From Chloroflexota bacterium (GTDB lineage: Bacteria > Chloroflexota > Anaerolineae > Anaerolineales > VGOW01): a stretch of 64,000 bases of DNA. The notes beneath the pieces are model-generated. The model saw only the letters and a list, made by a program, of their open reading frames with translations. It did not search any database and was not told where the DNA came from. Made by a program: the position numbers and the translations under genes. This document shows positions 5,588 through 64,000 of this stretch, piece by piece (the first letter of the stretch is position 1; the number at the start of each line of letters is the position of its first letter). Location: contig JACPWC010000057.1 of the NCBI GenBank assembly GCA_016197225.1, positions 44,675 through 108,674 of the forward strand. The letters are read 5' to 3'.

Positions 5588-5630
5588 GAATTAGAGGATT
5601 GGAGAATTCTCTAATTCTCCAATCCTCTCC
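5586..5630. repeat. AT-rich palindrome (GGATTGGAGAATT-ctct-AATTCTCCAATCC) at the FeS-anchor / Mo-subunit gene junction
   Basis: 13-bp perfect arms read directly from the sequence. Confidence 0.75.
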
Positions 5631-5640
5631 ACATGAAACG

Positions 5641-8553
5641 ATGCCTATGACTGACACCATCACCCCTACCCGCCTCACCACCCAACACAACGACGCAGGT
5701 GAACGCCTGCAACAATACCCGCCGCCCGAAAAATGGGACGACTGGGTTGAGTGGGATCACAAACAGTGGCCGAAGAAAGTGCCCAAGCACTACATGCTCG
5801 TGCCGACCGTGTGTTTCAATTGCGAGTCGGCTTGCGGCTTGCTGGGCTGGGTGGATAAAGAGACGATGCAGGTGCGGAAGTTCGAGGGCAACCCGGTCCA
5901 CCCCGGAAGCCGGGGCCGCAACTGCGCCAAAGGCCCGGCCACCATCAATCAAGTCAACGACCCCGACCGCATTCTCTATCCGCTCAAGCGCGCAGGAAAG
6001 CGCGGCGAAGGCAAGTGGGTGCGGGTGACGTGGGAAGAAGTGCTAAAGGACATCGGCGGTCGTATTCGCAAAGCGTTTTTAGAAGAGCGGCACAACGAGA
6101 TCATGTATCACGTTGGCCGCCCCGGCCACGATGGCGTCATGGAATGGATTCTTCCAGCCTGGGGCGTGGACGGCCACAACTCGCACACTAACATTTGCTC
6201 GTCGGGCGCGCGGGCGGGCTACGCTTTTTGGATGGGCTTCGACCGCCCCAGCCCCGACCACGCCAACGCCAACGTCATCCTGCTCATCAGCAGTCATCTC
6301 GAAACCGGCCACTACTTCAACCCGCACGCCCAGCGCATCATCGAGGGCAAGATGAACGGGGCAAAATTGATCGTGTGGGACACCCGGCTGTCGAACACGG
6401 CCTCGATGGCCGACACCTGGATTGCGCCGTGGCCCGGCTCGGAAGCCGCCATCCTGCTCGCCATCGCCAACTACCTCATCACTACTGGCAAATACAACCG
6501 GGAGTTTGTGAAGAAGTGGGTGAATTGGGAAGAGTATCTAAAGGCGACGGCAGACGATGGACGGCAGACGACAGACGACTCGTCGTCCATCGTCCATCGT
6601 CCGTCGTCATTCGATGATTTCGAGGCCGCGCTGAAAGAGCAATACGCAAAATATACGTTTGAGTATGCGGCAAAAGAGTCGGGCGTAGAGGCGGCTGTGT
6701 TGCGGAGGATTGCTGAGGATGTTGCAAACTGCGGCGGCAAACTGGCGACGCACAACTGGCGTAGTGCGGGCGCGGGCAACCTCGGCGGCTGGCAGGTGGC
6801 GCGTTGCCTGTTCTTCCTCAACGTCCTCACCGGCAGCATCGGCGTGGAGGGCGGCACCTCGGCCAATGCGTGGGACAAGTGGGTGCCGCGCCCGCATAAG
6901 TTCCCGCCGCACGGCAAACGCTGGAACGAACTCACCTGGCCGCGCGAGTATCCGCTCTCCTACTTCGAGATGAGCATCCTCCTCCCGCACTTCCTCAAAG
7001 AAGGGCGCGGCAAACTCGACACCTACTTCACCCGCGTCTACAACCCGATGTGGACGAACCCCGATGGCTTCACCTGGCTCGAAGCTCTGCGCGATGAGTC
7101 GAAGATTGGTTGTCACGTCGCCCTCACGCCCACGTGGAGCGAGTCGGCGTGGTGGGCCGATTACGTTCTGCCGATGGGCCACGCCTCCGAGCGCCACGAC
7201 CTGATGAGTCAGGAGACGCATGCCGGGCAGTGGATTGCTTTCCGCCAGCCGGTCAATCGCGTGGCGATGGAACGAATGGGAAAGAAAGTCAACCGCACCT
7301 ACGAAGCCAACCCCGGCCAGGTTTGGGAAGAGACTGAGTTCTGGATTGACCTGAGTTGGGAGATTGACCCCGACGGGGCACTCGGCATCCGTCAGTATTT
7401 CGAGTCGCCCTATCGCCCCGGCGAGCGCATTACGATGGACGAGTTCTACGGCTGGATGTTTGAGAACACCGTGCCCGGCCTGCCGGAGGCCGCCGCAAGG
7501 GAAGACTTGAAGCCGCTGGCGTACATGCGGAAATATGGCGCGTTCGAGATTCGCAAAGGCGCGTTGACTGAATACGACCGGACGCTTGCGCCTGAAGAAA
7601 TGACTGACGCGCAAGTGGATGAGGCGACGGGCATCATCTACATCAAGACTCCGATGACGCCGCCGAAAAACATCGTGCCGACTCCTGCCCCCGTCACCAC
7701 CGACTTAGGGCGACCCGTCGGCGTGATGGCCGGCGGCCAACCAAAGTTCGGCTTCCGCACCCCGTCGCGCAAACTCGAATTCTTTTCGACCACCCTCCGC
7801 GATTTCGGCTGGCCCGAAGTTGCCACGCCCGAATACATCGAGAGCCACGTCCACCCCAGCCGGGTCAACCGTGAGGCCAATGAGTTCGTTTTGCTTTCTA
7901 CCTATCGCCTCCCGACTCTGATCCACACCCGAAGCGCCAACGCCAAATGGCTGGTTGAAATTTCGCACTCCAACCCGACGTGGATTCACACCAGTGATGC
8001 CAACCGGCTTGGAGTTAAGACGGGCGAGTTGGTGCGCGTCGAAACCGAGATCGGTTATTTTGTGGATAAAGTCTGGGTCACCGAAGGCATCCGCCCCGGC
8101 GTGATCGCCTGCTCGCATCACCTCGGCCGCTGGCGGCTGACCGAAGGTGACGGCACAAACCGGATCGCCTCGGCGCTGGTTGAACTAAAAGAGGCGGGCG
8201 GCCAGTGGCAATTGACTCAACTCCACGGCGTCCAGCCGTACAAATCCTCCGACCCGGACACCGAGCGCATCTGGTGGAGTGATGCCGGCGTCCACCAGAA
8301 TCTCACCTTCCCCGTCCAGCCCGACCCGATCAGCGGCATGCACTGCTGGCATCAGAAAGTGAAAGTGACAAGAGCGCAACCCGGCGACCGTTACGGTGAT
8401 GTTCACGTAGACACGAACAAAGCCCACGAAGTGTACAAGCGCTGGCTGGCGATGGCCCGCCCGCCGACCGGCGAGTGGCGGCGGCCCAATTGGATGCTGA
8501 GACCGTTCCGGCCCGACGTGAGCGCGTACCGAATTAAGAAGGATGAAGGATGA
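5641..8553 (+). CDS. molybdopterin (bis-MGD) oxidoreductase catalytic subunit, PsrA/PhsA/TtrA-like (CISM family)
   Basis: N-terminal MopB FeS motif CFNCESACGLL...NCAKG; ~970 aa. No twin-arginine signal is visible. The ORF track starts at TTG 5584, which lies inside a hairpin; ATG 5641 (MPMTDT) is preferred. Carries an in-frame palindromic insert (DDGRQTTDDSSSIVHRPSS). Confidence 0.75.
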   Translation: MPMTDTITPTRLTTQHNDAGERLQQYPPPEKWDDWVEWDHKQWPKKVPKHYMLVPTVCFNCESACGLLGWVDKETMQVRKFEGNPVHPGSRGRNCAKGPATINQVNDPDRILYPLKRAGKRGEGKWVRVTWEEVLKDIGGRIRKAFLEERHNEIMYHVGRPGHDGVMEWILPAWGVDGHNSHTNICSSGARAGYAFWMGFDRPSPDHANANVILLISSHLETGHYFNPHAQRIIEGKMNGAKLIVWDTRLSNTASMADTWIAPWPGSEAAILLAIANYLITTGKYNREFVKKWVNWEEYLKATADDGRQTTDDSSSIVHRPSSFDDFEAALKEQYAKYTFEYAAKESGVEAAVLRRIAEDVANCGGKLATHNWRSAGAGNLGGWQVARCLFFLNVLTGSIGVEGGTSANAWDKWVPRPHKFPPHGKRWNELTWPREYPLSYFEMSILLPHFLKEGRGKLDTYFTRVYNPMWTNPDGFTWLEALRDESKIGCHVALTPTWSESAWWADYVLPMGHASERHDLMSQETHAGQWIAFRQPVNRVAMERMGKKVNRTYEANPGQVWEETEFWIDLSWEIDPDGALGIRQYFESPYRPGERITMDEFYGWMFENTVPGLPEAAAREDLKPLAYMRKYGAFEIRKGALTEYDRTLAPEEMTDAQVDEATGIIYIKTPMTPPKNIVPTPAPVTTDLGRPVGVMAGGQPKFGFRTPSRKLEFFSTTLRDFGWPEVATPEYIESHVHPSRVNREANEFVLLSTYRLPTLIHTRSANAKWLVEISHSNPTWIHTSDANRLGVKTGELVRVETEIGYFVDKVWVTEGIRPGVIACSHHLGRWRLTEGDGTNRIASALVELKEAGGQWQLTQLHGVQPYKSSDPDTERIWWSDAGVHQNLTFPVQPDPISGMHCWHQKVKVTRAQPGDRYGDVHVDTNKAHEVYKRWLAMARPPTGEWRRPNWMLRPFRPDVSAYRIKKDEG
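6545..6612. repeat. GACGA-family palindromic mini-element inserted in frame in the Mo-enzyme catalytic gene
   Basis: gacgatggacggcagacgacagacgac / tcgtcgtccatcgtccatcgtccgtcgtc; encodes DDGRQTTDDSSSIVHRPSS. Confidence 0.7.
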
Positions 8554-8585
8554 ATTACGAAATGAAGCTTCATCCTTCATCCTTC
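8538..8585. repeat. palindrome (GAAGGATGAAGGATGAA ... TTCATCCTTCATCCTTC) spanning the stop/start junction of the Mo-subunit and TorD-like genes
   Basis: Inverted arms flank the ATGA overlap. Confidence 0.65.
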
Positions 8586-25113: not shown

Positions 25114-25475
25114 ATGTTCTCCTTTGCAAAGTAGCGCTCCAGTGACCGGAGCTTTCCAAAATGTTGGGTTGCGCCTTGCCTTCCGGCAAAATAAAACGAG
25201 CCTGGTAAATCCAGGCTCGTTGAAGCTAAATTAGGAATGCGAGGGCCTATAATAAAAACTTCGGCGGCCTGGCGGTCATGGCCGACTCAGGCGGCTGTAG
25301 ACCCATAGCTTTGCGCCCCCGGCTTTCGCCGGGTTTGCCTTTATCAAGTTTTTAAGTTGACAGGTTCTATATTTACTTCTTAGTCTGGCGTTAGTATATG
25401 TCAGCATAATGATGATGTCAGTTGGTTTTTGGAGGGAATAGTTAGGAAAAGTAACATAAATTCCAGCGCCGGTGC

Positions 25476-32737: not shown

Positions 32738-32776
32738 TGGTTTGACTCCCCTCACTGACTGTATCTTACCGCGACC

Positions 32777-32815
32777 CGAGACTTCCGAAGTCTTAAAGAC
32801 TTCGGAAGTCTGGGA
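32777..32815. repeat. perfect 15-bp inverted repeat AGACTTCCGAAGTCT-taa-AGACTTCGGAAGTCT (intergenic, divergent promoter region)
   Basis: Read directly; the same element occurs inside gltB. Confidence 0.8.
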
Positions 32816-33958: not shown

Positions 33959-36900
33959 TTGCCTCACCCTTCATTCTCTAATTCCTCTCTCTCTCCCTAC
34001 GCCCCTCGTTTTGATCGCGGCGGTTGCGGCATCGGCTTTGTGGCCGACCAGCATGGCCGCCCAAGCCACGCTCTTCTGCTTCAAGCCCTTGAGGCGCTGA
34101 ACAACCTTCAACACCGGGGCGCATTGTCTGCCGACGCGCGCACTGGCGACGGGGCAGGCGTGCTCACCCCTCTTCCCCGCAACCTCTTCGCCCGTGAGGC
34201 TGAACGGCTCACCGGCCATTCCGTCAATCCCGATCAACTAGCCGTCGGCGTTTTCTTCTTTCAGCCGGACACAGCCGAGCAGTGCATGGCTCTGGCCGAG
34301 TCGGCGCTCGCGGCACAGGGCCTCCGCCTCTTGTGTTGGCGCGAAGTCCCCACCCACCCCGACGCTATTGGCGAACGCGCCCGCGCCACCATGCCGCGCA
34401 TCATGCAGGCAATAATCTATAACCAATTACCAATTACTAATTACCAATTTGAGCGCTCCCTCTACCTCGCCCGCAAACACTTCGAGCGCCACGCCCGCCC
34501 CCTCGGCGCGTACGTCCCCTCCTTCTCTTCGCGCACCATCGTCTACAAAGGCTTACTCCTCGCCCCGCAACTTCCGGCTTTCTACGCCGACCTGCAAGAC
34601 CCCGATTACGAAGCGCCGCTAGCCGTCTTTCATCAACGCTACAGCACGAACACGCTTCCCACCTGGCAGCGCGCCCAACCGTTCCGGGTGCTGTGCCACA
34701 ACGGCGAGATCAACACTTTGCAGGGCAACATTAACTGGATGAAGACGCGCGAGCCGCAATTAGACCTGTCAGGTCTTCTCCGCCCGGTGATTGATACCGG
34801 CGGCAGTGACTCGGCGATGCTCGACAACGCGGCGGAACTGCTGATGATGGGCGGGCGCGACATCCGGCACGCGCTCACCATGCTGGTCCCGCCCGCCTGG
34901 GAAAAGCTTCCCGACCTGACCGATGCCGTCCGCGATTTCTACGAATACCACACCTGCCTGACCGAACCCTGGGACGGGCCGGCGGCCCTGGTCTTCACCG
35001 ACGGTGCAACCGTCGGTGCAACCCTCGACCGCAACGGCCTGCGCCCGTGCCGTTACGTTGTCACCGAGGATGGATTGATCGCGGCGGCGTCCGAGGCCGG
35101 AGCGGTGGCCGTAGATGAAGCGCGCGTTCTCGTCAAAGGCAAACTCGGCCCCGGCCAGATGATCGCGGTGGACACGGCGCGCGGCCTGTTCTTCGAGGAC
35201 GGCCAGATCAAAGCCGAACTCGCCGCGCGAAAGCCCTATGGCGTTTGGGTGCGCGACAATCTGCGAAAACTCCCTGCAACAGCCACGCGAAGCGGCCATC
35301 AGCCACGCGAAGCGACCATCAGCCAGCAGGCCGCTTTCGGTTACACCAACGAAGAACTGGTCACGGTGATCCGTCCAATGGTCGAAAACAAAGCCGAGGC
35401 CATCGGCTCGATGGGCGACGACACTTCGCCGGCGGTGCTCTCGGACAAGCCCCGTCCGCTGTTCGGCTATTTCCGCCAGCGCTTCGCGGAAGTGACCAAC
35501 CCGCCGATTGACCCTCTGCGCGAAGAGTTGGTGATGTCGCTCCGTGTCCGGCTCGGCGCGCGCGGCAACTTCGTGGCTGAAACGCCGGAGCAGGCTCGAC
35601 TGCTCGAACTCGACAGCCCCTTCCTGACCGACGCCCAGTTGGCCGCCCTCAAAGCCGATCCTGAACTCAAGGCGGTGACTCTCTCAACGCTGTTCCGGGC
35701 GGCAGAGGGCGCGCCCGGGTTGCAGTTGGCGCTCGACCGGCTGTGCGCCGAAGCCGAACAGGCGGCGCGGGCCGGGGCGCAAGCCATCGTCCTGAGCGAC
35801 CGGGGCGTGGACGCCGAACACACTTTCATCCCATCGCTCCTCGCTCTCGGCGCGGTTCATCATCATCTTTTGCGGAGTGATTTGCGGGTGCAGGTAGATT
35901 TAGTAGTCGAAAGCGGCGAGCCGCGCGAGGTGCATCACTTTGCGGCACTCGTCGGTTATAGCGCGGCGGCCATCAACCCTTACCTGGTGTTGGCGGCCGC
36001 CGCCGGGTCGGGCCGGGATCAGGTGTCCCCCGAAGAGGCGGCGGCACGTTATCTTCATGCCGCCGAGCGCGGTCTGTTGAAGATCATGTCCAAGATGGGC
36101 ATCAGCACCGTAGATGCTTATTGCGGCGCGCAGATTTTTGAGGTCATCGGCTTGAGTAGTGAAGTAGTAGACGTTTATTTTGTCGGGACGGCCTCACACC
36201 TGGAAGGCCTCGGCCTGGACGGAATCGCCGACATCGTGCTGGCCTGGCATCGGGCCGCGTTTGGCGTAGACCGGCCTTCCCTCGACAGCCCCGGCTTCTA
36301 CAAATTCAAGCGCAACGGCGAACAGCACGCTTTCAGCCCGGCGGTTGTCCATGCCTTGCGCGATGCGGTGCGCACCCCCGGCGCGCTCAACGGCCACTGG
36401 GCCGAAGGGCACTCGGCTTACAAACGCTACAGCAAGCTCCAACACTCGCGAGCGCCGGTAGACGTGCGCGACCTGCTGGACTTTCACACCAATTACCAAT
36501 TACCAATTACTACCGATCAGGTGGAGTCCATTCCCACGATCATCCGCCGCTTCTCCACCGCCGCCATGTCGCACGGCGCGCTCTCGAAAGAGGCGCACGA
36601 GACCATGGCGATTGCCATGAACCGCCTCGGCGCGTGGAGCAACTCCGGCGAGGGCGGCGAAGACCCGGCGCGTTACTACGGCGAGAGCAACGACCGCATC
36701 AAGCAAGTGGCCTCGGCCCGCTTTGGCGTCACCCCGGCCTATCTCGTTTCGGCAGACGAATTGCAGATCAAAATGGCGCAAGGCTCCAAGCCCGGCGAGG
36801 GCGGGCAATTGCCGGGCCACAAAGTCACCGCCGAGATCGCCGCCATCCGTCACGCCACGCCCGGCGTGACGCTCATCTCGCCGCCGCCGCACCACGACAT

Positions 36901-38470
36901 TTACAGCATCGAAGACCTGGCGCAGTTGATCTACGACTTGCGGCAGATCAACCCGCGGGCGATCATCTCGGTCAAACTGGTGGCGCAGGCGGGAGTTGGC
37001 ACGATCGCGGCGGGTGTGGCAAAGGCGGGCGCGGACGCGATCCTCATCAGCGGCAGTTCCGGCGGCACCGGCGCGTCGCCGTTGAGCAGTATCAAATATG
37101 CGGGCATCCCCTGGGAACTTGGGCTGGCCGAGACGCAGTACGTTCTGATCGAGAACGGCTTGCGCGAGCGCGTTCGTTTACGAGCCGACGGCGGCCTGCG
37201 CACCGGGCGCGATGTGGTCGTGGCCGCCCTGCTCGGCGCGGACGAATACTCTTTCGGCACGGCGGCGGTGGTGGCCGAAGGTTGCCTCATGGCCCGCGCC
37301 TGCCACCTCAACACCTGCCCGGCCGGAATCGCCACCCAACGCCCGGAACTGCGGGCCAAGTTCGACGGCACGCCCGAACAAATCATGGCCTTCTTCATGC
37401 ACGCCGCTGAAGAAGTGCGTGAGATTCTGGCGAGCCTCGGGCTGGAGTCGCTCGACGAAGCGATTGGCCGGGTGGAATTGTTGAAGCAGATGGCCGCTCC
37501 GCGTGAGCGGCCTCTGGACCTCAGCCGCCTCTTGCTCGCGCCGCCGGGTGATGGCTCCCGGCGTTACACGGGTGAGCCGAATCGCGTTCCTTCGGACTCG
37601 CCGCTCAACGAGCAACTTCTGGCAGATTGCGAGCAACACTCAATCCTTGACCACCCCTGGCGGCCTCTGCGCCGGGAAAGTTTTGTGTACCACATCACCA
37701 ACCGCGACCGCGCCTTTGGGGCGCGGCTGGCCGGCGAGATTGCCATGCGCTACGGCGACGCCGGCCTGCCTGAGGGCACGATCAAAGTCACGCTCCGGGG
37801 CAGTGCCGGGCAATCGTTCGGCGCATTTGGCGTGCCGGGGCTAAATCTAACATTGATGGGCGAAGCGAACGACGACGTGGGCAAGGGTCTGGCTGGAGGG
37901 AGGATCGTTATCAAACAGACTTCCGAAGTCTCGCCGGTCTTTGGCGCTTCGGAAGTCTGGGGTTCGGAAGTCTGGGCGGAATCCCCCGTGCTTGCCGGGA
38001 ACACGGTGCTATATGGCGCAACCGGCGGCGAAGTCTTCATCGCCGGGCGGGCCGGTGAACGATTCGCCGTCCGCAACAGCGGCGCGACGGCGATTGTCGA
38101 AGGCGTGGGCGACCACGGCTGTGAGTATATGACCGGCGGGCTTGCCATCATCTTAGGCTCCATTGGCTACAACTTCGCGGCGGGGATGACGGGCGGCGTC
38201 GCCTTTTTGCTCGACGAGGACGGGCGAGCGCCAGCGCGAATCAACGGGCAGTTGGTTCAGGTCGAAGCGCCCAGCGACGAAGACCTGGAAATGTTGCGAG
38301 TCTGGATCGCCCAACATGCGCAACTGGCCGCCAGCAACAAGGCTCAAGCGTTGCTGGACAATTGGGCAGAGGCGTCGAAGCAGTTCTTGAAGGTCGCCCC
38401 AAAAGATCAACCGGCGGCTGGCCTCATTCCGGTAATATCGCCTGGGTTGGCTGTGCCTGTGCCGGGATAA
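33959..38470 (+). CDS. gltB: glutamate synthase large subunit
   Basis: N-terminal class-II amidotransferase CGIGFVA; FMN and GXGXG domain layout; ~1500 aa. The start is a TTG in the ORF track and the true start is uncertain. Contains three in-frame low-complexity inserts. Confidence 0.9.
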   Translation: MPHPSFSNSSLSPYAPRFDRGGCGIGFVADQHGRPSHALLLQALEALNNLQHRGALSADARTGDGAGVLTPLPRNLFAREAERLTGHSVNPDQLAVGVFFFQPDTAEQCMALAESALAAQGLRLLCWREVPTHPDAIGERARATMPRIMQAIIYNQLPITNYQFERSLYLARKHFERHARPLGAYVPSFSSRTIVYKGLLLAPQLPAFYADLQDPDYEAPLAVFHQRYSTNTLPTWQRAQPFRVLCHNGEINTLQGNINWMKTREPQLDLSGLLRPVIDTGGSDSAMLDNAAELLMMGGRDIRHALTMLVPPAWEKLPDLTDAVRDFYEYHTCLTEPWDGPAALVFTDGATVGATLDRNGLRPCRYVVTEDGLIAAASEAGAVAVDEARVLVKGKLGPGQMIAVDTARGLFFEDGQIKAELAARKPYGVWVRDNLRKLPATATRSGHQPREATISQQAAFGYTNEELVTVIRPMVENKAEAIGSMGDDTSPAVLSDKPRPLFGYFRQRFAEVTNPPIDPLREELVMSLRVRLGARGNFVAETPEQARLLELDSPFLTDAQLAALKADPELKAVTLSTLFRAAEGAPGLQLALDRLCAEAEQAARAGAQAIVLSDRGVDAEHTFIPSLLALGAVHHHLLRSDLRVQVDLVVESGEPREVHHFAALVGYSAAAINPYLVLAAAAGSGRDQVSPEEAAARYLHAAERGLLKIMSKMGISTVDAYCGAQIFEVIGLSSEVVDVYFVGTASHLEGLGLDGIADIVLAWHRAAFGVDRPSLDSPGFYKFKRNGEQHAFSPAVVHALRDAVRTPGALNGHWAEGHSAYKRYSKLQHSRAPVDVRDLLDFHTNYQLPITTDQVESIPTIIRRFSTAAMSHGALSKEAHETMAIAMNRLGAWSNSGEGGEDPARYYGESNDRIKQVASARFGVTPAYLVSADELQIKMAQGSKPGEGGQLPGHKVTAEIAAIRHATPGVTLISPPPHHDIYSIEDLAQLIYDLRQINPRAIISVKLVAQAGVGTIAAGVAKAGADAILISGSSGGTGASPLSSIKYAGIPWELGLAETQYVLIENGLRERVRLRADGGLRTGRDVVVAALLGADEYSFGTAAVVAEGCLMARACHLNTCPAGIATQRPELRAKFDGTPEQIMAFFMHAAEEVREILASLGLESLDEAIGRVELLKQMAAPRERPLDLSRLLLAPPGDGSRRYTGEPNRVPSDSPLNEQLLADCEQHSILDHPWRPLRRESFVYHITNRDRAFGARLAGEIAMRYGDAGLPEGTIKVTLRGSAGQSFGAFGVPGLNLTLMGEANDDVGKGLAGGRIVIKQTSEVSPVFGASEVWGSEVWAESPVLAGNTVLYGATGGEVFIAGRAGERFAVRNSGATAIVEGVGDHGCEYMTGGLAIILGSIGYNFAAGMTGGVAFLLDEDGRAPARINGQLVQVEAPSDEDLEMLRVWIAQHAQLAASNKAQALLDNWAEASKQFLKVAPKDQPAAGLIPVISPGLAVPVPG
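34423..34450. repeat. CCAATTA heptamer run inside gltB (encodes NQLPITNYQ)
   Basis: ccaattaccaattactaattaccaatt. Confidence 0.6.
36487..36512. repeat. second CCAATTA heptamer run inside gltB (encodes TNYQLPITT)
   Basis: caccaattaccaattaccaattacta. Confidence 0.6.
37917..37976. repeat. GACTTCCGAAGTCT-family palindromic element inserted in frame in the gltB C-terminal domain
   Basis: agacttccgaagtct-cgccggtctttggcg-cttcggaagtctgggg-ttcggaagtctggg; encodes TSEVSPVFGASEVWGSEVWAE. Confidence 0.75.
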
Positions 38471-39384: not shown

Positions 39385-39470
39385 TAGTCAGGTGGTCGAG
39401 TGGTCAGGTAGTTTGGTGGTCATCGTGCATGAAGATTTGACTACTCGACTACAAGACAACGCGACTACTC
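39385..39470. repeat. intergenic inverted repeats of GTCGAGT(A/G)GTC-type units
   Basis: agtcaggtggtcgagtggtcaggtagt ... gactactcgactacaagacaacgcgactactcgact. Confidence 0.5.
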
Positions 39471-40259
39471 GACTTTAGTCAGCCTTCCAATCAAGTTGTA
39501 GAAAATCAAAAAGTTCGGAATCTGAGGCACGCCGGCGGTGGCCCAGTTGAACCAGCCGCCTTCTTTTTTCACCGAGATCGTGCCTCGATGAATCTTGATT
39601 CCTTTGATCTCGTCCCAGCGCAGTGATTTGTTGCCAGAGTAGATGCCGTTGGGGTCAATGGCGAGCGGGCCAAAGGTAAGACGCTGGCCCTGTTGCAAAG
39701 CCTGGAGGTAGCGGGGGAAAAGGGCGGTGGCCGAGCCGCTGATGATGGCGTTGCCCAGGTCTTCAATCTTTTTGAATTTGTTGTCCAGCACGATCCGCTG
39801 TTTGTCTTTGGTCTGGACGGTGTAGAGGTAAGTGGTGCCGGTGTAGATGCCGTTGCGATAGTGTTTGGTGATGTTTTGCCAGACGGCGTCAATATTATCC
39901 CAGCGCACTTGTTTGAAGCCGTTGCGATCGTTGTAGGCAAAGCCGTTGTCGTAAAGCGCCGCCGCCAGCGGCCAGTTGCGCCAGGCGCTGTAGAGGCCGT
40001 AGAGGCCGAGCGGAACGGCAATGACGCCGCAAATCAGCGGAAGAATGAATCCGGAATCATCTACCTTGCTAATGCCATAGCGAGTGTAGGCGTTGTAAGC
40101 CATGAAGGCCGCGACCAGCAGGAGCACCGGCCCGGCGACGACAATCAGCCCACTGAAGATGACGTTGATCCAGCGGCCCGATTTTGCCGGGCTGTGATCG
40201 CTTTTGAACGCGCCCAGTCCGACGACGGAAGCAAAAGGTGAAGACGGATCAGGTTGCAT
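39465..40259 (-). CDS. hypothetical membrane protein
   Basis: Two or three N-terminal TM helices followed by a soluble domain; no motif recognised. Confidence 0.4.
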   Translation of the reverse strand: MQPDPSSPFASVVGLGAFKSDHSPAKSGRWINVIFSGLIVVAGPVLLLVAAFMAYNAYTRYGISKVDDSGFILPLICGVIAVPLGLYGLYSAWRNWPLAAALYDNGFAYNDRNGFKQVRWDNIDAVWQNITKHYRNGIYTGTTYLYTVQTKDKQRIVLDNKFKKIEDLGNAIISGSATALFPRYLQALQQGQRLTFGPLAIDPNGIYSGNKSLRWDEIKGIKIHRGTISVKKEGGWFNWATAGVPQIPNFLIFYNLIGRLTKVE

Positions 40260-41272: not shown

Positions 41273-42913
41273 ATGCCTGTCATCGAATCCCAACTCAACC
41301 CAAACGACGAACGCTTCAAAGAGAACGCCGAACACAACCGGGCGCTGGCCGAAGAATTGCGGACGCGGCTGGCGCAAGCCCGGCAGGGTGGCGGCGAGAA
41401 GTATCAGCGGCGGCACGAGGCGCAGGGCAAGTTGTTTGTGCGCGAGCGCATTGACAAACTGCTCGATCCCAATTCTCCATTTCTCGAATTCTCCCCATTG
41501 GCGGCCTGGCACATGTATCACAACGAAGCGCCGGGCGCGGGCCTCGTCACCGGCATTGGCCGCGTGAGCGGGCGCGAGTGCCTGATTGTGGCCAACGACG
41601 CGACGGTAAAAGGCGGCTCCTACCTGCCGATGACGGTGAAGAAGCATTTGCGGGCGCAGGAGATCGCGCAAGAGAATCGACTGCCGTGCATTTATCTGGT
41701 GGACTCTGGCGGCGCGTTTTTGCCATTGCAGGCCGAGGTCTTTCCCGACCACGATCACTTTGGCCGCATCTTCTACAACCAGGCGCGGATGAGCGCGCTG
41801 GGCATCCCGCAGATTGCGGCGGTGATGGGCAGTTGCACGGCAGGCGGGGCCTACGTTCCGGCGATGAGCGACGAGACAGTGATTGTTCAAGGGACGGGCA
41901 CGATCTTTCTGGCCGGGCCGCCGCTGGTGAAGGCGGCGACGGGTGAAGAAGTGACCGCCGAGGAGTTGGGCGGCGCGTGGGTTCACACTCACAAGTCCGG
42001 CGTGGCCGACCATTTTGCCGAGGACGATGAGCAGGCGCTGGAGATGGTGAGAGAAATCGTTGCGACACTGGGAGACGAAGGACGAAGGACGATGGACGGT
42101 AGACAACAATCGTCGGTCGTCGGTCGTCCGTCGTCGGTGGAAGAACCGCTGTATCCTGCTGAGGAGTTGTATGGGATTATTCCAAAGTCGTTCCGCGAGT
42201 CTTATGATGCGCGGGAGGTGATTGCGCGGCTGGTGGACGGGAGCGAACTGCGCGAGTTCAAGGCCAACTACGGCACGACGCTGGTGACGGGCTTTGCCCG
42301 CATTGACGGTTTCCCCGTCGGCATCATTGCCAACAACGGGGTACTGTTCAGCGAGAGCGCCTTGAAGGGCGCGCACTTTGTCGAACTTTGCGCGGCGCGG
42401 GACATCCCGCTATTGTTTTTGCAGAACATCACCGGCTTCATGGTCGGGCGCGAATACGAGGCGGGCGGCATCGCCAAAGACGGGGCCAAGATGGTGCATG
42501 CCGTCGCCAACGCCCGCGTGCCCAAGTTTACAATCATCATCGGCGGCAGTTTTGGCGCGGGCAACTACGGCATGTGCGGGCGGGCCTACCAGCCGCGCTT
42601 CCTGTGGATGTGGCCCAACGCTCGCATCAGCGTGATGGGCGCTGAGCAGGCGGCCAACGTTCTACTGACGGTGAAGCAGGATCAACTGGCCCGCGAGGGC
42701 AAGCCGCCGATGTCGCCCGAAGAGGCAACCGCTTTCAAACAGCCCACGCTCGACAAGTACGAAGCCGAAGGCAGTCCCTATTACTCGACGGCGCGGCTTT
42801 GGGATGATGGGATTCTTGATCCGGTGGAGACGCGGCGTGCCCTGGGGTTGGCGATTGCGGCGGCTTACAATGCGCCGGTGGAGGAGACGAAGTATGGCGT
42901 GTTCAGAATGTGA
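41273..42913 (+). CDS. acyl-CoA carboxylase carboxyltransferase (beta) subunit (propionyl-/methylcrotonyl-CoA carboxylase beta-like)
   Basis: Two crotonase-like CT domains, with [10 protein letters not shown] and [13 protein letters not shown] motifs. The ORF track starts at 41213, but ATG 41273 follows an AT-rich repeat. Confidence 0.8.
42070..42138. repeat. GACGA-family palindromic mini-element inserted in frame in the carboxyltransferase gene
   Basis: gacgaaggacgaaggacgatggacgg...cgtcggtcgtcggtcgtccgtcgtcgg; encodes [21 protein letters not shown]. Confidence 0.7.
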
Positions 42914-42924
42914 GGAGGGAGAAG

Positions 42925-44712
42925 ATGACGGATATTCAACCGATTGAATCATGCCTGAAGTTCTCTAAAATTCTCATCGCCAACCGCGGCGAAATCGCCG
43001 TCCGCATCATCCGCGCTTGCAGGGAAATGGACATTCGCACTGTTGCCGTTTACTCCGAAGCTGATGCCAACGCACTCCACACTCGGCTGGCCGACGAAGC
43101 TGTGCCCATCGGCCCGCCCGCGCCGCGCGAGTCCTACTTAAAAATTGATCGCCTGCTCGAAGCCGCCCGGAACACAAACGCCGACGCCATTCATCCGGGC
43201 TACGGCTTCCTGTCCGAGAACGCCGACTTCGCCGAGGCGGTTGCGGCGGCAGGCATTGTGTTCATTGGCCCGCCTGCCGAAGCCATTCGCAAAATGGGAA
43301 GCAAGACCGGAGCGCGAACCATGATGGAACAGGCTGGGGTGCCTGTGGCGTCGGGCTTCTCGCCGATGAACAATGAAATAATGAACAATGAACAATGGGC
43401 TGGAGCGGCAAAAAAGATTGGCTATCCGGTGCTGGTGAAGGCGGCGGCGGGCGGCGGCGGCAAAGGGATGCGGATCGTTCGCGCGCCGGATGAACTGGAC
43501 GAGGCAGTGGCGGCGGCCCGGCGCGAGGCGGCCAATGCCTTTAGCGACGATAGCATCTTTCTCGAAAAGTACATTGAGAGTCCGCGCCACATTGAGTTTC
43601 AGGTGTTGGCCGACTCGTTCGGAGAGACCGTTCACTTGTTTGAGCGTGAGTGTTCCATTCAGCGTCGTCATCAGAAAATTATTGAAGAGACGCCGTCGCC
43701 GTTCCTCACAAGGGAAATAAGAGAAAAGATGGGAAATGCGGCGGTGGCGGCGGCCCGGGCCGTCGGCTATGCCAGCGTAGGCACGGTTGAGTTCATCGTT
43801 GAACCGTCCGGCAATTTCTACTTTTTGGAAATGAACACCCGCCTGCAAGTGGAGCACCCGATCACTGAAATGATGACCGGCGTGGATTTGGTGAAGGCCC
43901 AAATTCGAATCGCGGCGGGCGAGCGCCTCTGGTTCGGGCAACGTGATCTTTCGCAACGCGGCCACGCCATTGAGTGCCGGGTCTACGCCGAAGACCCGGC
44001 CAATAATTTTTTTCCGTCGGTCGGGAAGATCGAGGAGGCCATTGAACCAGTCCGCCCCGGCGTGCGCGTGGATGCCGGCGTGGCGGCGGGCGACGAGGTC
44101 TCGATCCACTACGATCCGATGATCGCCAAAGTGATTGCCCACGCCGAGACTCGCGCCGACGCAATCCGCAAGATGGATGCGGCGCTGGCTGACTACAAGT
44201 TGACAGGCATCACCACCAATATTTCATTTTTGCGTGCCGTGCTGGCTCACCCGGCTTTTGGGCGGGGCGAGACGACGACGCATTTTATTGAAGAGCATTT
44301 GAGGGATTGGCAACCAGAGGCACAGGAGTCAGAAGTCAGGAGTCAGAAGCCAGAATTGAGAGCAATGGCGGCAGACCCCTGGGAACGCGCGGATGGTTTC
44401 AGGCTGGGGACGGGCGCGGCGGCAGGTAGTGGGCGGCAGGCGAGCGGGGGCGTGAAGCGAGAAGCGGCCAAACGACAAACGACACGGGCGGGCGGCCACG
44501 AGGCGCTGGAGGCGGCAATGCCGGGCCTGGTGCGAAACGTGCTGGTAAAAGAAGGCGATTTGGTGGAAAAAGGCCAGGCGCTGGTGCTGTTGGAGGCGAT
44601 GAAGATGGAGATTCGGGTGGCCGCACCGCACGCCGGGAAGGTCGTCAAAGTGCTGGTTTCACCCGGCGAGACGGTTGACCGGGGCCAGCGGCTGATTGAA
44701 CTCGGCCATTGA
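42925..44712 (+). CDS. acyl-CoA carboxylase alpha subunit (biotin carboxylase + biotin carboxyl carrier domain)
   Basis: ILIANRGEIAVRIIRAC...ATP-grasp; C-terminal EAMKMEI biotinyl-lysine motif; RBS GAGGAGGGAG upstream of ATG 42925. Confidence 0.85.
   Translation: MTDIQPIESCLKFSKILIANRGEIAVRIIRACREMDIRTVAVYSEADANALHTRLADEAVPIGPPAPRESYLKIDRLLEAARNTNADAIHPGYGFLSENADFAEAVAAAGIVFIGPPAEAIRKMGSKTGARTMMEQAGVPVASGFSPMNNEIMNNEQWAGAAKKIGYPVLVKAAAGGGGKGMRIVRAPDELDEAVAAARREAANAFSDDSIFLEKYIESPRHIEFQVLADSFGETVHLFERECSIQRRHQKIIEETPSPFLTREIREKMGNAAVAAARAVGYASVGTVEFIVEPSGNFYFLEMNTRLQVEHPITEMMTGVDLVKAQIRIAAGERLWFGQRDLSQRGHAIECRVYAEDPANNFFPSVGKIEEAIEPVRPGVRVDAGVAAGDEVSIHYDPMIAKVIAHAETRADAIRKMDAALADYKLTGITTNISFLRAVLAHPAFGRGETTTHFIEEHLRDWQPEAQESEVRSQKPELRAMAADPWERADGFRLGTGAAAGSGRQASGGVKREAAKRQTTRAGGHEALEAAMPGLVRNVLVKEGDLVEKGQALVLLEAMKMEIRVAAPHAGKVVKVLVSPGETVDRGQRLIELGH
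44325..44356. repeat. tandem GAGTCAGAAG(T/C)CAG repeat in the BC-BCCP linker (encodes QESEVRSQKPE)
   Basis: ggagtcagaagtcaggagtcagaagccagaa. Confidence 0.5.
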
Positions 44713-46674: not shown

Positions 46675-47130
46675 TTATACCCCCGGCCTTCTGAGAAACA
46701 TCACAGTCCGTTCCACTTCCACTACCACTGTCCCATCCTGCTTGCGCCCGATATGCTTTAGGCGGATGATGCCTCGATCCGGTTTGGAGGCCGACTCGCG
46801 CTTCTCCAACACATCGGTTTCGACGTAGATCGTGTCGCCGTGAAAGACAGGGTTGGGGTGGACGACGCGCTCGTAGCCCAGGTTGGCGACGATGGTGCCC
46901 TCGGTCAGGTCGGGCACAGTGAGGCCGATGACCAGGCCAAAGGTATAGATGCCGTTGACAATGCGCTGGCCGAATTGAGTTTTGGCGGCGAAGTCCTCGT
47001 TGAGGTGCAGAGGCTGGGTGTTCATCGTCAGGGCGCAGAACAGCACGTTGTCGGCCTCGGTGACGGTGCGCCCCAGGCTATGTTGGATGTGGTCGCCCAC
47101 GTTCAGGTCGTCGAAGTATTTGCCGGGCAT
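46675..47130 (-). CDS. MaoC-like (R)-specific enoyl-CoA hydratase/dehydratase
   Basis: MPGKYFDDLNVGD...hot-dog fold. The ORF track start at 47175 would translate a GACGA-family repeat; ATG 47130 is preferred. Confidence 0.75.
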   Translation of the reverse strand: MPGKYFDDLNVGDHIQHSLGRTVTEADNVLFCALTMNTQPLHLNEDFAAKTQFGQRIVNGIYTFGLVIGLTVPDLTEGTIVANLGYERVVHPNPVFHGDTIYVETDVLEKRESASKPDRGIIRLKHIGRKQDGTVVVEVERTVMFLRRPGV

Positions 47131-47192
47131 AAGAGAACGAAGGACGATAGACGAAAGACGACGGATGGTCGTCATTTGTCATTCGTCATTTG
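47131..47192. repeat. GACGA-family element, intergenic copy
   Basis: gaacgaaggacgatagacgaaagacgacggatggtcgtcatttgtcattcgtcatttgtcat. Confidence 0.6.
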
Positions 47193-48518
47193 TCATTTCT
47201 TCTCCCCAAACTTCGCCGTCAACAACTCCGTCAGCGTCGGCTGGCCGATCTCTTGCAGTTCGTAACGCACGCGCTGAGCCGGCTTGTCGAACTTGATCAG
47301 GCGGCTGAGGTCAATTGGGGTGGCGACAACGACCACGTCTGCCGGAGTGTTGTTGATCGTCTGCCGCAGTTCTTCGGTCTGCTTCGCGCCGTAGCCCATC
47401 GCCGGCAGCACCGCGCCGGTCGTTGGATACTTTTTGTAAGTGGCGATGATACTGCCGACGGCATACGGTTTCGGATCAATAATCTCCGCCGCCCCGAAAC
47501 GTTTGGCCGCCACCACGCCGGCCCCGTAAGCCATCTCGCCGTGAGTGAGGGTGGGGCCGTCTTCGACCACCAGCACCCGCTTGCCGCGAATGGCCTCCGG
47601 GTCGTCCACAAAGATCGGGGAAGCCGCCTCGACGATAGCGGCTTTGGGATTCAGGCCGCGCAGACTCTCGCGCACACTCATCACCGCGCTGGAGTCCGCC
47701 GTGTCCACTTTGTTGATCACCAGCGCATCGGCCAGCCGCACGTTGGCCTCGCCTGGGTGATAGCTGGACTCGTGGCCGGGGCGGTGCGGGTCGGCCACCA
47801 CAATGTGATAATCGCTGACGTAAAACGGCAGGTCGTTGTTGCCGCCGTCCCACAACACAATGTCCACTTCCTTCTCGGCCTCGCGCACAATCTTCTCGTA
47901 GTCCACCCCGGCGAACACCACCACGCCCCGATCAATGTGCGGCTCGTACTCTTCGCGCTCTTCGATGGTGCAGTTGTATTCTTCGAGATCGTCGTATTCG
48001 GCAAAACGTTGGACGTTCTGGGCGATGAGGTTGCCGTAAGGCATAGGGTGGCGAATGGCGGCCACGTTGTAGCCCAGCCCGCGCAAAATGCTGGCCACGT
48101 GGCGCGAGGTCTGGCTCTTGCCCGCGCCGGTTCGCACCGCGCCGATGGAAACGACGGGCTTGGTGGATTTGACCTGCGTGTGCCGCAGGCCGAGCAGGCT
48201 GAAATCGGCGCCGGCGGCCAACACCTGAGAAGCCTTGTGCATCACATAGTTGTGCGAAATGTCGCTGTAGCTGAACACAACTTCGTCTACTTTCAGATCG
48301 GCGATCAGTTTGAGCAGTTCTTCTTCGCCATAAATGGGAATGCCTTTGGGATAGTTCGGCCCGGCCAGTTCAGGCGGGTAAGCCCGCCCGGCGATGTCGG
48401 GAATCTGGGTGGCAGTGAAGGCTACCACTTCCACTTGATCGTTCTGGCGATAATACGTGTTGAAATTGTGGAAGTCGCGCCCGGCGGCTCCCATGATCAA
48501 AATGCGTTTTTTGGACAT
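47193..48518 (-). CDS. cyclic 2,3-diphosphoglycerate synthetase-like P-loop protein
   Basis: 441 aa; P-loop VSIGAVRTGAGKSQT about 130 aa in; WDGGNNDLPFY..YHIVVADP block. The layout resembles archaeal cDPG synthetase as I remember it; the family assignment is from memory, not from an alignment. Confidence 0.45.
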   Translation of the reverse strand: MSKKRILIMGAAGRDFHNFNTYYRQNDQVEVVAFTATQIPDIAGRAYPPELAGPNYPKGIPIYGEEELLKLIADLKVDEVVFSYSDISHNYVMHKASQVLAAGADFSLLGLRHTQVKSTKPVVSIGAVRTGAGKSQTSRHVASILRGLGYNVAAIRHPMPYGNLIAQNVQRFAEYDDLEEYNCTIEEREEYEPHIDRGVVVFAGVDYEKIVREAEKEVDIVLWDGGNNDLPFYVSDYHIVVADPHRPGHESSYHPGEANVRLADALVINKVDTADSSAVMSVRESLRGLNPKAAIVEAASPIFVDDPEAIRGKRVLVVEDGPTLTHGEMAYGAGVVAAKRFGAAEIIDPKPYAVGSIIATYKKYPTTGAVLPAMGYGAKQTEELRQTINNTPADVVVVATPIDLSRLIKFDKPAQRVRYELQEIGQPTLTELLTAKFGEKK

Positions 48519-55265: not shown

Positions 55266-55295
55266 GAGAGTTCTCCTTTCGTCTAAACATTTCGC

Positions 55296-55333
55296 AGACC
55301 TCACAGGTCTGCTTCGCAAGACCTGTGAGGTCT
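55296..55333. repeat. perfect 15-bp inverted repeat AGACCTCACAGGTCT-gcttcgca-AGACCTGTGAGGTCT between two minus-strand genes
   Basis: Read directly. Confidence 0.75.
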
Positions 55334-55339
55334 ACGCCG

Positions 55340-62104: not shown

Positions 62105-62133
62105 TTGACAAGCCTTTTTGGGCGTGATAACAT
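62105..62133 (+). promoter_or_regulatory. sigma70-like promoter for the metK leader (TTGACA-17-TAACAT)
   Basis: TTGACA 62105-62110, 17-nt spacer, TAACAT 62128-62133, just upstream of the riboswitch. Confidence 0.5.
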
Positions 62134-62159: not shown

Positions 62160-62380
62160 GGCAACTCTTATCCAGAGAGGCGGAGGGACCAGCCCGATGA
62201 AGCCTCGGCAACCGTCTGGATGTTAGAGGTTAGAGGTTAGAAATTGGAGAACTTCCAAAATCTAACATCCAACTTCCAACCTCCAAAATTGGTGCCAATT
62301 CCGGCAGGTATCTGGAAGATGAGAGGGAGCCACGAGTTAAATCGCCATGCCCCTTCTCCGCCAGAAGGGGCTTTTATTTA
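62160..62380 (+). promoter_or_regulatory. SAM-I (S-box) riboswitch with an expanded P3 stem, plus terminator-type expression platform
   Basis: CUCUUAUCCAGAGAGGCGGAGGGACCAGCCCGAUGAAGCCUCGGCAACC ...GGUGCCAAUUCCGGCAG...GAAGAUGAGAGG matches the SAM-I consensus blocks. A ~75-nt imperfect palindrome (62222-62290) is inserted where P3 normally closes. Terminator ccccttct-ccgcc-agaagggg + cttttattt at 62349-62380. Confidence 0.8.
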
Positions 62381-62450
62381 CACGACGACTGACCGACGAC
62401 GAAAGACGAGCGACAAGCCTTCGTCTTTCGCCTATCGTCCTCCGTCATTC
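62381..62450. repeat. GACGA-family element between the riboswitch terminator and the metK RBS
   Basis: cgacgacgaaagacgagcgacaagcc-ttcgtctttcg-cctatcgtcctccgtcat. Confidence 0.6.
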
Positions 62451-62470
62451 ACACAAGGAGAAATTTTACA

Positions 62471-63700
<1,230 letters not shown>

Positions 63701-63771: not shown

Positions 63772-64000
63772 TTAGCCGCCAACGGGCAAAGTAGGAGAAG
63801 AAGTAAGAGTAGGGGCCACAGGCGTATCTGTTGGCGGCGGGATAGGCGTGTCAGTAGGCGGCGGCACCGGCGTGTCGGTATCTGGTGGGATGGGCGTGTT
63901 AGTAGGCGGCACAGGGGTATCCGTATTTGTTGGTGGAATGGGCGTGTCGGTGGGGAGCGGCGTGGCGGTCGGCACGGGCGGGTGGGTGGTGGTGGGAGTT
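63772..64000 (-). CDS. C-terminal fragment of a Pro/Thr-rich tandem-repeat protein (runs off the window)
   Basis: Repeats PTDTPIPP / PTNTDTPVPP; stop at 63772; the gene continues beyond 64000. Confidence 0.4.
   Translation of the reverse strand, partial: TPTTTHPPVPTATPLPTDTPIPPTNTDTPVPPTNTPIPPDTDTPVPPPTDTPIPPPTDTPVAPTLTSSPTLPVGG

Follow-up and report, generated by a model that had tools for sequence, protein, structure and literature searches.

A tandem-heptamer hairpin in the P3 stem of a metK SAM-I riboswitch, and related short-period palindromes in an Anaerolineales genome

The canonical scheme of SAM-I (S-box) riboswitches comprises an anti-antiterminator, an antiterminator and a terminator, and the ligand, S-adenosylmethionine (SAM), contacts the P1 and P3 stems and the J1/2 joining segment (PMC2770654). 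Here we describe the leader of metK, the gene for SAM synthetase, in a 64,000-nucleotide stretch of a Chloroflexota genome (contig JACPWC010000057.1, positions 44,675 to 108,674; hereafter the window), where a SAM-I riboswitch carries a long repetitive hairpin in P3. The contacts of P3 with SAM are located at the junction-proximal end of that stem. In its full consensus aptamer, four-way junction, terminator/antiterminator platform and site upstream of metK, the riboswitch resembles other members of Rfam family RF00162, but its distal P3 is a tandem-heptamer hairpin of 77 nt, compared with a median of 22 nt among 95 distinct aptamers with the same 32-nt core. It is probably a working SAM-I riboswitch that hosts a tolerated, DNA-level repeat array drawn from a genome-wide class of short-period palindromes.

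Several described repeat families come close to this class. Short tandemly repeated repetitive (STRR) heptamers of heterocyst-forming cyanobacteria were reportedly described by Vioque in 1997 inside the RNase P RNA gene, where the host helix is P12. Like the window arrays, they are tandem 7-nt units dispersed in the genome and tolerated in a variable helix of a structured, functional RNA; the window arrays differ in their Chloroflexota host, in unit sequence, in being mostly self-complementary palindromes, in also having periods of 8 and 13, in occupying a riboswitch instead of RNase P RNA, and in forming in-frame arrays in coding sequences (CDSs). Rickettsia palindromic elements (RPEs) are 100-150 bp long and have family consensus sequences. 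They are reported from CDSs and from the transfer-messenger RNA gene, and they share with the window elements an occurrence in intergenic DNA, in frame in protein genes and inside structured RNA; the window elements, in contrast, are 36-89 bp long and internally periodic, with only a 5-6-nt core conserved per unit. Repetitive extragenic palindromic (REP) sequences, their hairpin-forming doublets (REPINs) and miniature inverted-repeat transposable elements (MITEs) are likewise dispersed through genomes as short repeats that form hairpins, lie mainly outside genes and may be present in one relative but absent from another, whereas the window class has tandem units, occurs in CDSs and lacks a conserved full-length consensus or flanking duplications. 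Heptameric simple sequence repeats are over-represented in bacterial intergenic regions, as with GGGAATC in Xanthomonas and GGGGAYT in Nostoc, and share with our arrays the period of 7, intergenic enrichment, rapid change of length and sequence between close relatives and occasional inverted pairs (PMC4692102). Those heptamers are G-rich, quadruplex-prone, mostly one-armed and intergenic, whereas the units described here are not G-runs, typically form two-armed palindromes and enter a riboswitch and CDSs. STRR sequences, RPEs and intergenic heptamer repeats thus resemble the window class without including it, all three differing from it in taxon, unit sequence and the two-armed palindromic form. 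In a limited literature search, neither repeats within riboswitch aptamers nor heptamer palindromes of Anaerolineae were found to have been described, and the class is unusual and apparently undescribed.

The metK leader is made up, from 5' to 3', of a promoter, the aptamer, an antiterminator/terminator pair, a second palindrome, the ribosome-binding site (RBS) and the gene:

62105..62133 (+): promoter, sigma-70-type, TTGACA-17-TAACAT with TG before the -10 (consensus scan, 10/12 matches)
62165..62325 (+): SAM-I (S-box) riboswitch aptamer, P1-P4 (RF00162 match, fold, core conservation)
62214..62290 (+): distal P3 hairpin, 77 nt, tandem heptamers (TTAGAGG-type 5' arm; CCAAC/CCTCCAA-type 3' arm; inverted repeat, fold, periodicity)
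62321..62358 (+): predicted antiterminator, GAGAGGG (62321-62327, 3' strand of P1 and beyond) with CCUUCUC (62352-62358, terminator 5' arm) (folds)
62349..62379 (+): intrinsic terminator, stem GCCCCTTCT / AGAAGGGGC, loop CCGCC, then TTTTATTT (terminator scan)
62384..62450 (+): second short-period palindrome, GACGAnn heptamers, in the read-through 5' untranslated region (UTR) between the T-tract and the RBS (fold, hairpin scan)
62455..62460 (+): RBS AAGGAG (sequence reading; spacing to ATG conserved in relatives)
62471..63700 (+): metK, S-adenosylmethionine synthetase, 409 aa (protein match and Pfam domains)

A sequence-only reading of the window had placed a SAM-I riboswitch with all its conserved blocks upstream of metK, and had suggested an Infernal search that allowed for a long P3 insertion. 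An Rfam scan of the whole window bore this out with the insert in place: RF00162 (SAM) matched 62165-62325 (+) at 77.2 bits (gathering score 44.4; E = 2.1e-16) across model positions 1-108 of 108, with every conserved block at the highest posterior probability ('*'). The alignment left 67 bases unaligned and put them in the P3 terminal loop, in agreement with the earlier assignment of the extra sequence to distal P3, and marked some P3 pairs adjoining the insert as non-canonical. Consensus letters of the GA/UGA kink-turn (K-turn), which in this family lies in P2, were seen in the alignment; the family's pseudoknot, which joins the P2 loop to J3/4, is not represented in the covariance model. 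The minimum-energy fold of the whole leader (-86 kcal/mol, z = -4.7) recovered the P1-P4 four-way junction, the extended P3 and the terminator, and the GAGAGGG/CCUUCUC pairing appeared in constrained and partial-transcript folds. The hairpin and U-tract that had been read as a terminator correspond to a stem at 62349-62371 of nine pairs, six of them G-C, followed by TTTTATTT, and this stem is conserved in all relatives. So is the promoter block TTGACAAGCC...GGTAACAT / GATAACAT in the four relatives compared (L081, L087, L088 and L089). The MetK of the window is 100% identical to protein P0001, which is annotated from a "Chloroflexi bacterium" metagenome-assembled genome and carries the three S-AdoMet synthetase domains (PF00438, PF02772 and PF02773), and at least 590 MetK relatives confirmed by tblastn place the window in Anaerolineales, Chloroflexota.

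The P3 insert occupies the 77 nt between GGCAACC and GGUGCC. An inverted-repeat search delimited two arms of 32 nt each (62217-62248 and 62254-62285) that are 78% complementary, and Tandem Repeats Finder detected a period of 7 on both (GTTAGAG x2.9 and AACATCC x5.3). The insert folds as a single long imperfect hairpin of -29.8 kcal/mol (z = -4.6), a value equalled by 0 of 200 shuffles. Of the palindromic repeat of about 75 nt that had been proposed here, the hairpin therefore stands, with the length corrected to 77 nt and the single palindromic unit replaced by a hairpin of tandem heptamers. The sequence-only reading otherwise gave the element positions exactly or within a few bases, and did not include the in-frame coding members of the class that are described below.

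We compared this leader with those of relatives. In a scan of contigs the closest MetK identity among the matches listed was 81%; closer relatives were found through exact-match retrieval of near-identical MetK proteins. Among Anaerolineales whose MetK is 74-81% identical, most metK leader aptamers are of normal size, 102-109 nt. Because these distant Anaerolineales have a normal aptamer and a short gap between terminator and RBS, both palindromes in the window are additions to the ordinary layout. Five related species, with MetK 87-94% identical and metK at 84-88% nucleotide identity, all share a repeat hairpin placed precisely where the window has it in P3, with unit periods of 7, 8 or 13 and differing unit families:

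L081-L086: metK nucleotide identity to the window 87.5%; P3 insert 83 nt; heptamer, GGTTGGA
L111: metK nucleotide identity 83.6%; P3 insert 83 nt; heptamer, TTAGAGR
L087: metK nucleotide identity 85.6%; P3 insert 75 nt; octamer
L088 / L090: metK nucleotide identity 85.7%; P3 insert 64 nt; 13-mer containing TTAGAG
L089: metK nucleotide identity 86.1%; P3 insert 88 nt; octamer

The inserts of these relatives fold as long hairpins (-27 to -52 kcal/mol), and the four insert-bearing aptamers from L081, L087, L088 and L089 pass the Rfam threshold at 76-85 bits. Homologous arrays stand at the matching position in the window, L081, L111 and L168, where they can be aligned, share the start GTCTGGA.GTTRGAG and, judged by that alignment, are evidently orthologous; the window insert is 73-75% identical to those of L081 and L111. 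Three species (L087, L088 and L089) are mutually 92.8-92.9% identical in metK, yet two of them have octamer GTRGTCnn arrays and one a TTAGAG-type array, and no remnant of one unit family was found inside the other in their P3 inserts. The P3 array is therefore old as a feature, with a content that is quickly replaced, and a fresh insertion does not fit an array orthologous across several species. A family-wide consensus of the kind known from RPEs was not found, orthologous inserts being 48-75% identical and families being swapped between relatives about 93% identical. In a separate observation, the contigs L081-L086, which represent one species with identical MetK, differ by 48-63 nt in a CAATGAn heptamer array located where the intergenic DNA preceding metK has its 5' end, a copy-number polymorphism within the species.

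Conservation along the leader was uneven. Between the window and its relatives, identity was 96-98% in the aptamer 5' core, 81-90% in the 3' core and expression platform, 60-71% at fourfold-degenerate sites of metK and 48-75% in the P3 insert. Since core identity far exceeds that of fourfold sites while all the species carry inserts, purifying selection has maintained the aptamer core while P3 was occupied. Though indirect, this is the strongest sign to hand that the riboswitch works with its insert, and it lends the same indirect support to the word "functional" in the earlier proposal. We regard the riboswitch as ordinary and, almost certainly, as functional. A decaying relic, disabled by insertion and leaving metK constitutive or otherwise controlled, is very improbable: the covariance score of 77 bits does fall below that of insert-free relatives (up to 94.7 bits), and non-canonical pairs do adjoin the insert, but the invariant blocks are all present, the terminator, antiterminator and promoter are conserved, and the core has diverged far less than neutral sites in species that all carry inserts.

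The P3 hairpin is one of many. A gapped hairpin scan found 12 strong hairpins in the window, compared with 0-1 in shuffles, and nine hairpins with period-7 or period-8 arms, seven of which have period 7. The census rests on this gapped scan; an ungapped version, requiring 19 or more matches in arms of 24 nt, proved too stringent and returned only four elements. The nine are:

2215-2278; 5593-5628; 8538-8585; 47125-47207: short-period palindromes (gapped hairpin scan)
6546..6608 (+): GACGA-type palindrome in frame in a molybdopterin oxidoreductase gene (alignment to a PDB entry is interrupted between about residue 304 and residue 329)
39386..39474 (+): intergenic octamer palindrome (GTRGTCnn / nnGACYAC), of the same unit family as the L087 and L089 P3 inserts (hairpin scan)
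42074..42135 (+): GACGA-type palindrome in frame in a methylcrotonyl/propionyl-CoA carboxylase beta gene, in an inter-domain linker (translation open throughout)
62217-62285 and 62387-62450: the P3 and second palindromes of the metK leader (gapped hairpin scan)

Their units include GACGAnn, TTRGARR, GTRGTCnn, ACGTATT and others, and some recur in the window far beyond expectation: GACGANNGACGA has 12 matches at four loci (0.1 expected), TTRGARRNTTRGAR four (0.04 expected) and GTRGTCNNGTRGTC, of the family found in the L087 and L089 inserts, three (0.01 expected). Under a stricter two-armed filter that retains seven of the nine window elements, short-period palindromes reach a density per 10 kb of 1.1 in the window, 0.6 in close relatives (sampled around metK), 0.14 at other Chloroflexota loci and 0.06 in unrelated phyla.

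Members of the class also enter proteins. The two in-frame palindromes (6546-6608 and 42074-42135) encode peptides such as ...DDGRQTTDDSSSIVHRPSS... and leave both CDSs in continuity with homologues of solved structure; the carboxylase beta protein aligns to PDB entry 4q0g in a single stretch (residues 19-546) with extra residues at 265-290. Among 26 close homologues (P0121-P0146) both the length and the sequence of the linker that joins VATL to EEPLYP are hypervariable, and several show the peptide signature of a GACGA array; at the same codon position, L211 (301-1929) has a GACGA palindrome and L212 (301-1935) an AAAATCC tandem array. Glutamate synthase and biotin carboxylase genes contain in-frame, one-armed heptamer arrays (ACCAATT, ATGAACA and CAGAAGT; 34409-34452, 36483-36517, 43366-43397 and 44319-44361). 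Palindromes of heptamers and octamers are present, too, in metagenome-assembled genomes of more distant Chloroflexota (L017 2912-2989 and L015 1224-1290), and the one in L017, a member of Roseiflexaceae, lies directly upstream of metK.

The interval between terminator and RBS holds the second palindrome of the leader. As had been proposed, a GACGA-family palindrome stands there (62384-62450) and is extra sequence relative to L087 and to distant Anaerolineales; its fold has z = -3.2, and the hairpin scan scores it 54 (62387-62450) with period 7 on both arms. This gap contains GACGA arrays in three cases (the window, L088 and L089), a CACAGAG array in L081 and an unrelated element some 110 nt long in L111, while in L087 it is empty; in L087 and in more distant Anaerolineales, unlike in the window, the RBS follows the terminator by 10-20 nt. 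The gap is a hot spot for inserted elements, as P3 is. A role of the palindrome in masking the RBS was considered and rejected, the arms pairing with each other and the predicted pairing with the RBS being a low-frequency structure (2% of the ensemble). The L111 element shares a 14-mer, GCCCCTTGTGGGCG, in opposite orientation with L089 at about 1330-1600, upstream of the metK promoter, which suggests another dispersed family, non-tandem and of about 110 nt or more.

The differing contents of this gap, with its empty state in L087, are among the observations in favour of true miniature mobile elements, by which both palindromes would be MITE- or REPIN-like units, acted on by a transposase that recognises hairpins and inserted independently in P3 and in the leader. 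Unit families common to unrelated loci and to different genomes fit this explanation, as do the differences in P3 insert family among the three species about 93% identical in metK and the presence of one element in both orientations at a single site (L174/L190 versus L108, described below). The structure of the elements fits it poorly. At the nine window elements we found nothing consistent by way of target-site duplications, flanking direct repeats or common termini, and no conserved full-length copy; flanks of ACAC...ACAC in the window and AAAC...AAAC in L088 and L089 are suggestive without being general. Each element is an array of 7-8-nt units; copies differ in the number of units and have no more in common than a 5-6-nt core within each, and one-armed, non-palindromic arrays of like kind exist, which fits slippage better than transposition. 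No associated transposase, and no linked REP-associated tyrosine transposase (RAYT) such as would point to membership in the MITE or REPIN families, was identified in the window, though no systematic search was made. We therefore regard mobile elements as a doubtful explanation, and the label "mobile-like mini-element" given to the P3 insert in the sequence-only reading found no backing in duplications, termini or full-length copies.

Using the 32-nt aptamer 5' core as a query, we scanned metagenomes and retrieved 113 aptamers with 95 distinct distal-P3 sequences. Distal P3 exceeds 60 nt in 20 of the 95, and the P3 tip therefore tolerates insertions. Half of these 20 consist of short-period repeat palindromes; they come from five or more distinct riboswitch lineages, and some lie upstream of genes other than metK. 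The remaining 10 are non-repeat extensions. One non-repeat extension of about 89-96 nt, common to L098, L183, L189, L192, L180, L129 and L208, has a weak consensus stem with a few compensatory pairs, and may be a structured P3 domain of its own.

To distinguish a feature of the RNA from one of the DNA, we used the bias of mismatches in the repeat hairpins, in place of counting compensatory changes, since P3 inserts of different families cannot be aligned. A hairpin maintained as RNA should favour G·U, which pairs in the RNA, over A·C, which corresponds to G·U on the opposite strand only. The 14 repeat-type P3 inserts have 29 G·U and 44 A·C mismatches, next to 389 Watson-Crick pairs and 71 mismatches of other kinds, and thus show no excess of G·U over A·C. 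Orientation tells a similar story at a SAM-I riboswitch upstream of another gene, where the P3 insert of L108 is the reverse complement of that in L174 and L190, with identical flanks (63/80 identity when reverse-complemented, 52/76 when aligned directly). For this imperfect heptamer palindrome the change of orientation shifts the predicted energy of the RNA hairpin between -21 and -30 kcal/mol. As sequence evidence, the mismatch counts and the inversion point to a DNA-level element that is merely tolerated by the RNA.

These observations bear most directly on the possibility that the long P3 hairpin is an adaptive RNA feature, such as a stabiliser of P3 and the SAM pocket, a folding timer, a protein-binding site or an RNase III entry site for turnover of the leader or mRNA. 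All six species of the clade keep a hairpin of 64-88 nt at the P3 site despite complete sequence change, every one of these inserts folds with an energy between -27 and -52 kcal/mol, and long P3 extensions, repeat and non-repeat, recur in other SAM-I lineages, all of which would suit such a role. Selection on the RNA would sit less easily with the lack of preference for G·U, with orientation flips that alter RNA stability, with an identity between species near or below the neutral proxy, and with arrays of identical kinds in protein linkers and intergenic DNA, where riboswitch function is irrelevant. An adaptive hairpin is on balance quite unlikely.

Several points nonetheless weigh against the reading of a working riboswitch with a tolerated array. 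The leader's anatomy, the assignment of its aptamer to SAM-I, the pattern among relatives and the further members of the class in the genome are shown here; SAM binding and termination by the metK leader are, like the neutrality of the insert and the DNA-level mechanism of the arrays, what we infer. The SAM-I pseudoknot and K-turn are putative in this RNA. A hairpin of about 30 bp could be an RNase III substrate or a brake on co-transcriptional folding, which makes neutrality an assumption, and every clade member keeps some long P3 hairpin, none having reverted to a short P3, so that the extension could be useful. The G·U and A·C counts (29 and 44) are small and drawn from partly related sequences. 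Even so, both palindromes, in P3 and in the leader, are real and non-random and have a greater age than the sequence-only reading implied, and they are best read as passengers.

The leader would then work as follows. Bound SAM would hold P1 closed and so block the GAGAGGG/CCUUCUC antiterminator, leaving the terminator at 62349-62379 to stop RNA polymerase and turn metK off. The distal part of P3, whose length varies naturally and which is expected to face away from the ligand pocket, would have been taken over by a self-complementary tandem array of 7-nt units, folding on itself as a local hairpin that lengthens P3 and leaves the pocket undisturbed. The array moves the two halves of the aptamer, 5' and 3', apart by about 70 nt, and the decision window would be unchanged because the distance from completion of the aptamer to the terminator is not altered. 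It would evolve fast, through changes in unit number, replacement of units and inversion, while the aptamer core and platform stay conserved, and the second palindrome would be a similar passenger in the read-through leader. More generally, the class would accumulate wherever extra sequence is tolerated, at RNA stem tips, in the terminator-RBS gap, in intergenic spacers and, in frame, in surface or inter-domain protein linkers. The arrays may arise by slippage in hairpins that shift register, by hairpin-templated repair, by gene conversion between paralogous riboswitches or by true transposition. As regards gene conversion, arrays may pass between paralogous SAM-I riboswitches, with the near-identical aptamer cores serving as homology arms. 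The octamer inserts of metK leaders (L087 and L089) and of metH-type leaders (L143 and L133) have similar ends, TTTAGTC...GACTAAnCCCAA, in support of such transfer.

Three further observations lie apart from the metK leader. A c-di-GMP-I-GGC riboswitch (RF03167) at 25259-25348 (-) scores 73.2 bits against a threshold of 59, has a small extra loop segment and is unrelated to the leader. Hairpins or repeats that lack a short period, of the GACTTCGGAAGTC type (twice) and the AGACCTCACAGGTCT type, lie at 32776-32814, 37948-37976 and 55293-55336, and may represent terminators or another small family of repeats. At 63820-63980, degenerate tandem repeats of 24 nt and 18 nt (AGGCGTGTCAGTAGGCGGCGGGAT-like) probably belong to a repetitive coding region that runs off the 3' end of the window.

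For the SAM-I family, these leaders amount to a natural experiment in which the same aptamer is found with P3 tips of 12 to 98 nt and many unrelated inserts, gauging how much foreign sequence the fold tolerates and giving a ready-made series of variants for kinetic (co-transcriptional) models. The inserts also bear on annotation, in that they lower covariance scores and stretch the match, and tools with tight length limits could miss such riboswitches. Chloroflexota are abundant in wastewater and sediments. It is conceivable, at somewhat less than an even chance, that these bacteria, and this Anaerolineales clade especially, harbour a class of 7-8-nt tandem-repeat palindromes, so far undescribed and in active renewal, that colonises every structurally permissive site and is replaced, resized and inverted faster than synonymous divergence, which would imply a dedicated DNA-level mechanism, whether hairpin-templated slippage and repair or an enzyme. 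The class behaves like cyanobacterial STRR sequences and RPEs combined, and its in-frame presence in enzymes, with rapid replacement and inversion, makes it more surprising than the riboswitch itself. By adding low-complexity peptides to enzymes and hairpins to leaders, it could be a general source of variation in protein linkers and UTRs.

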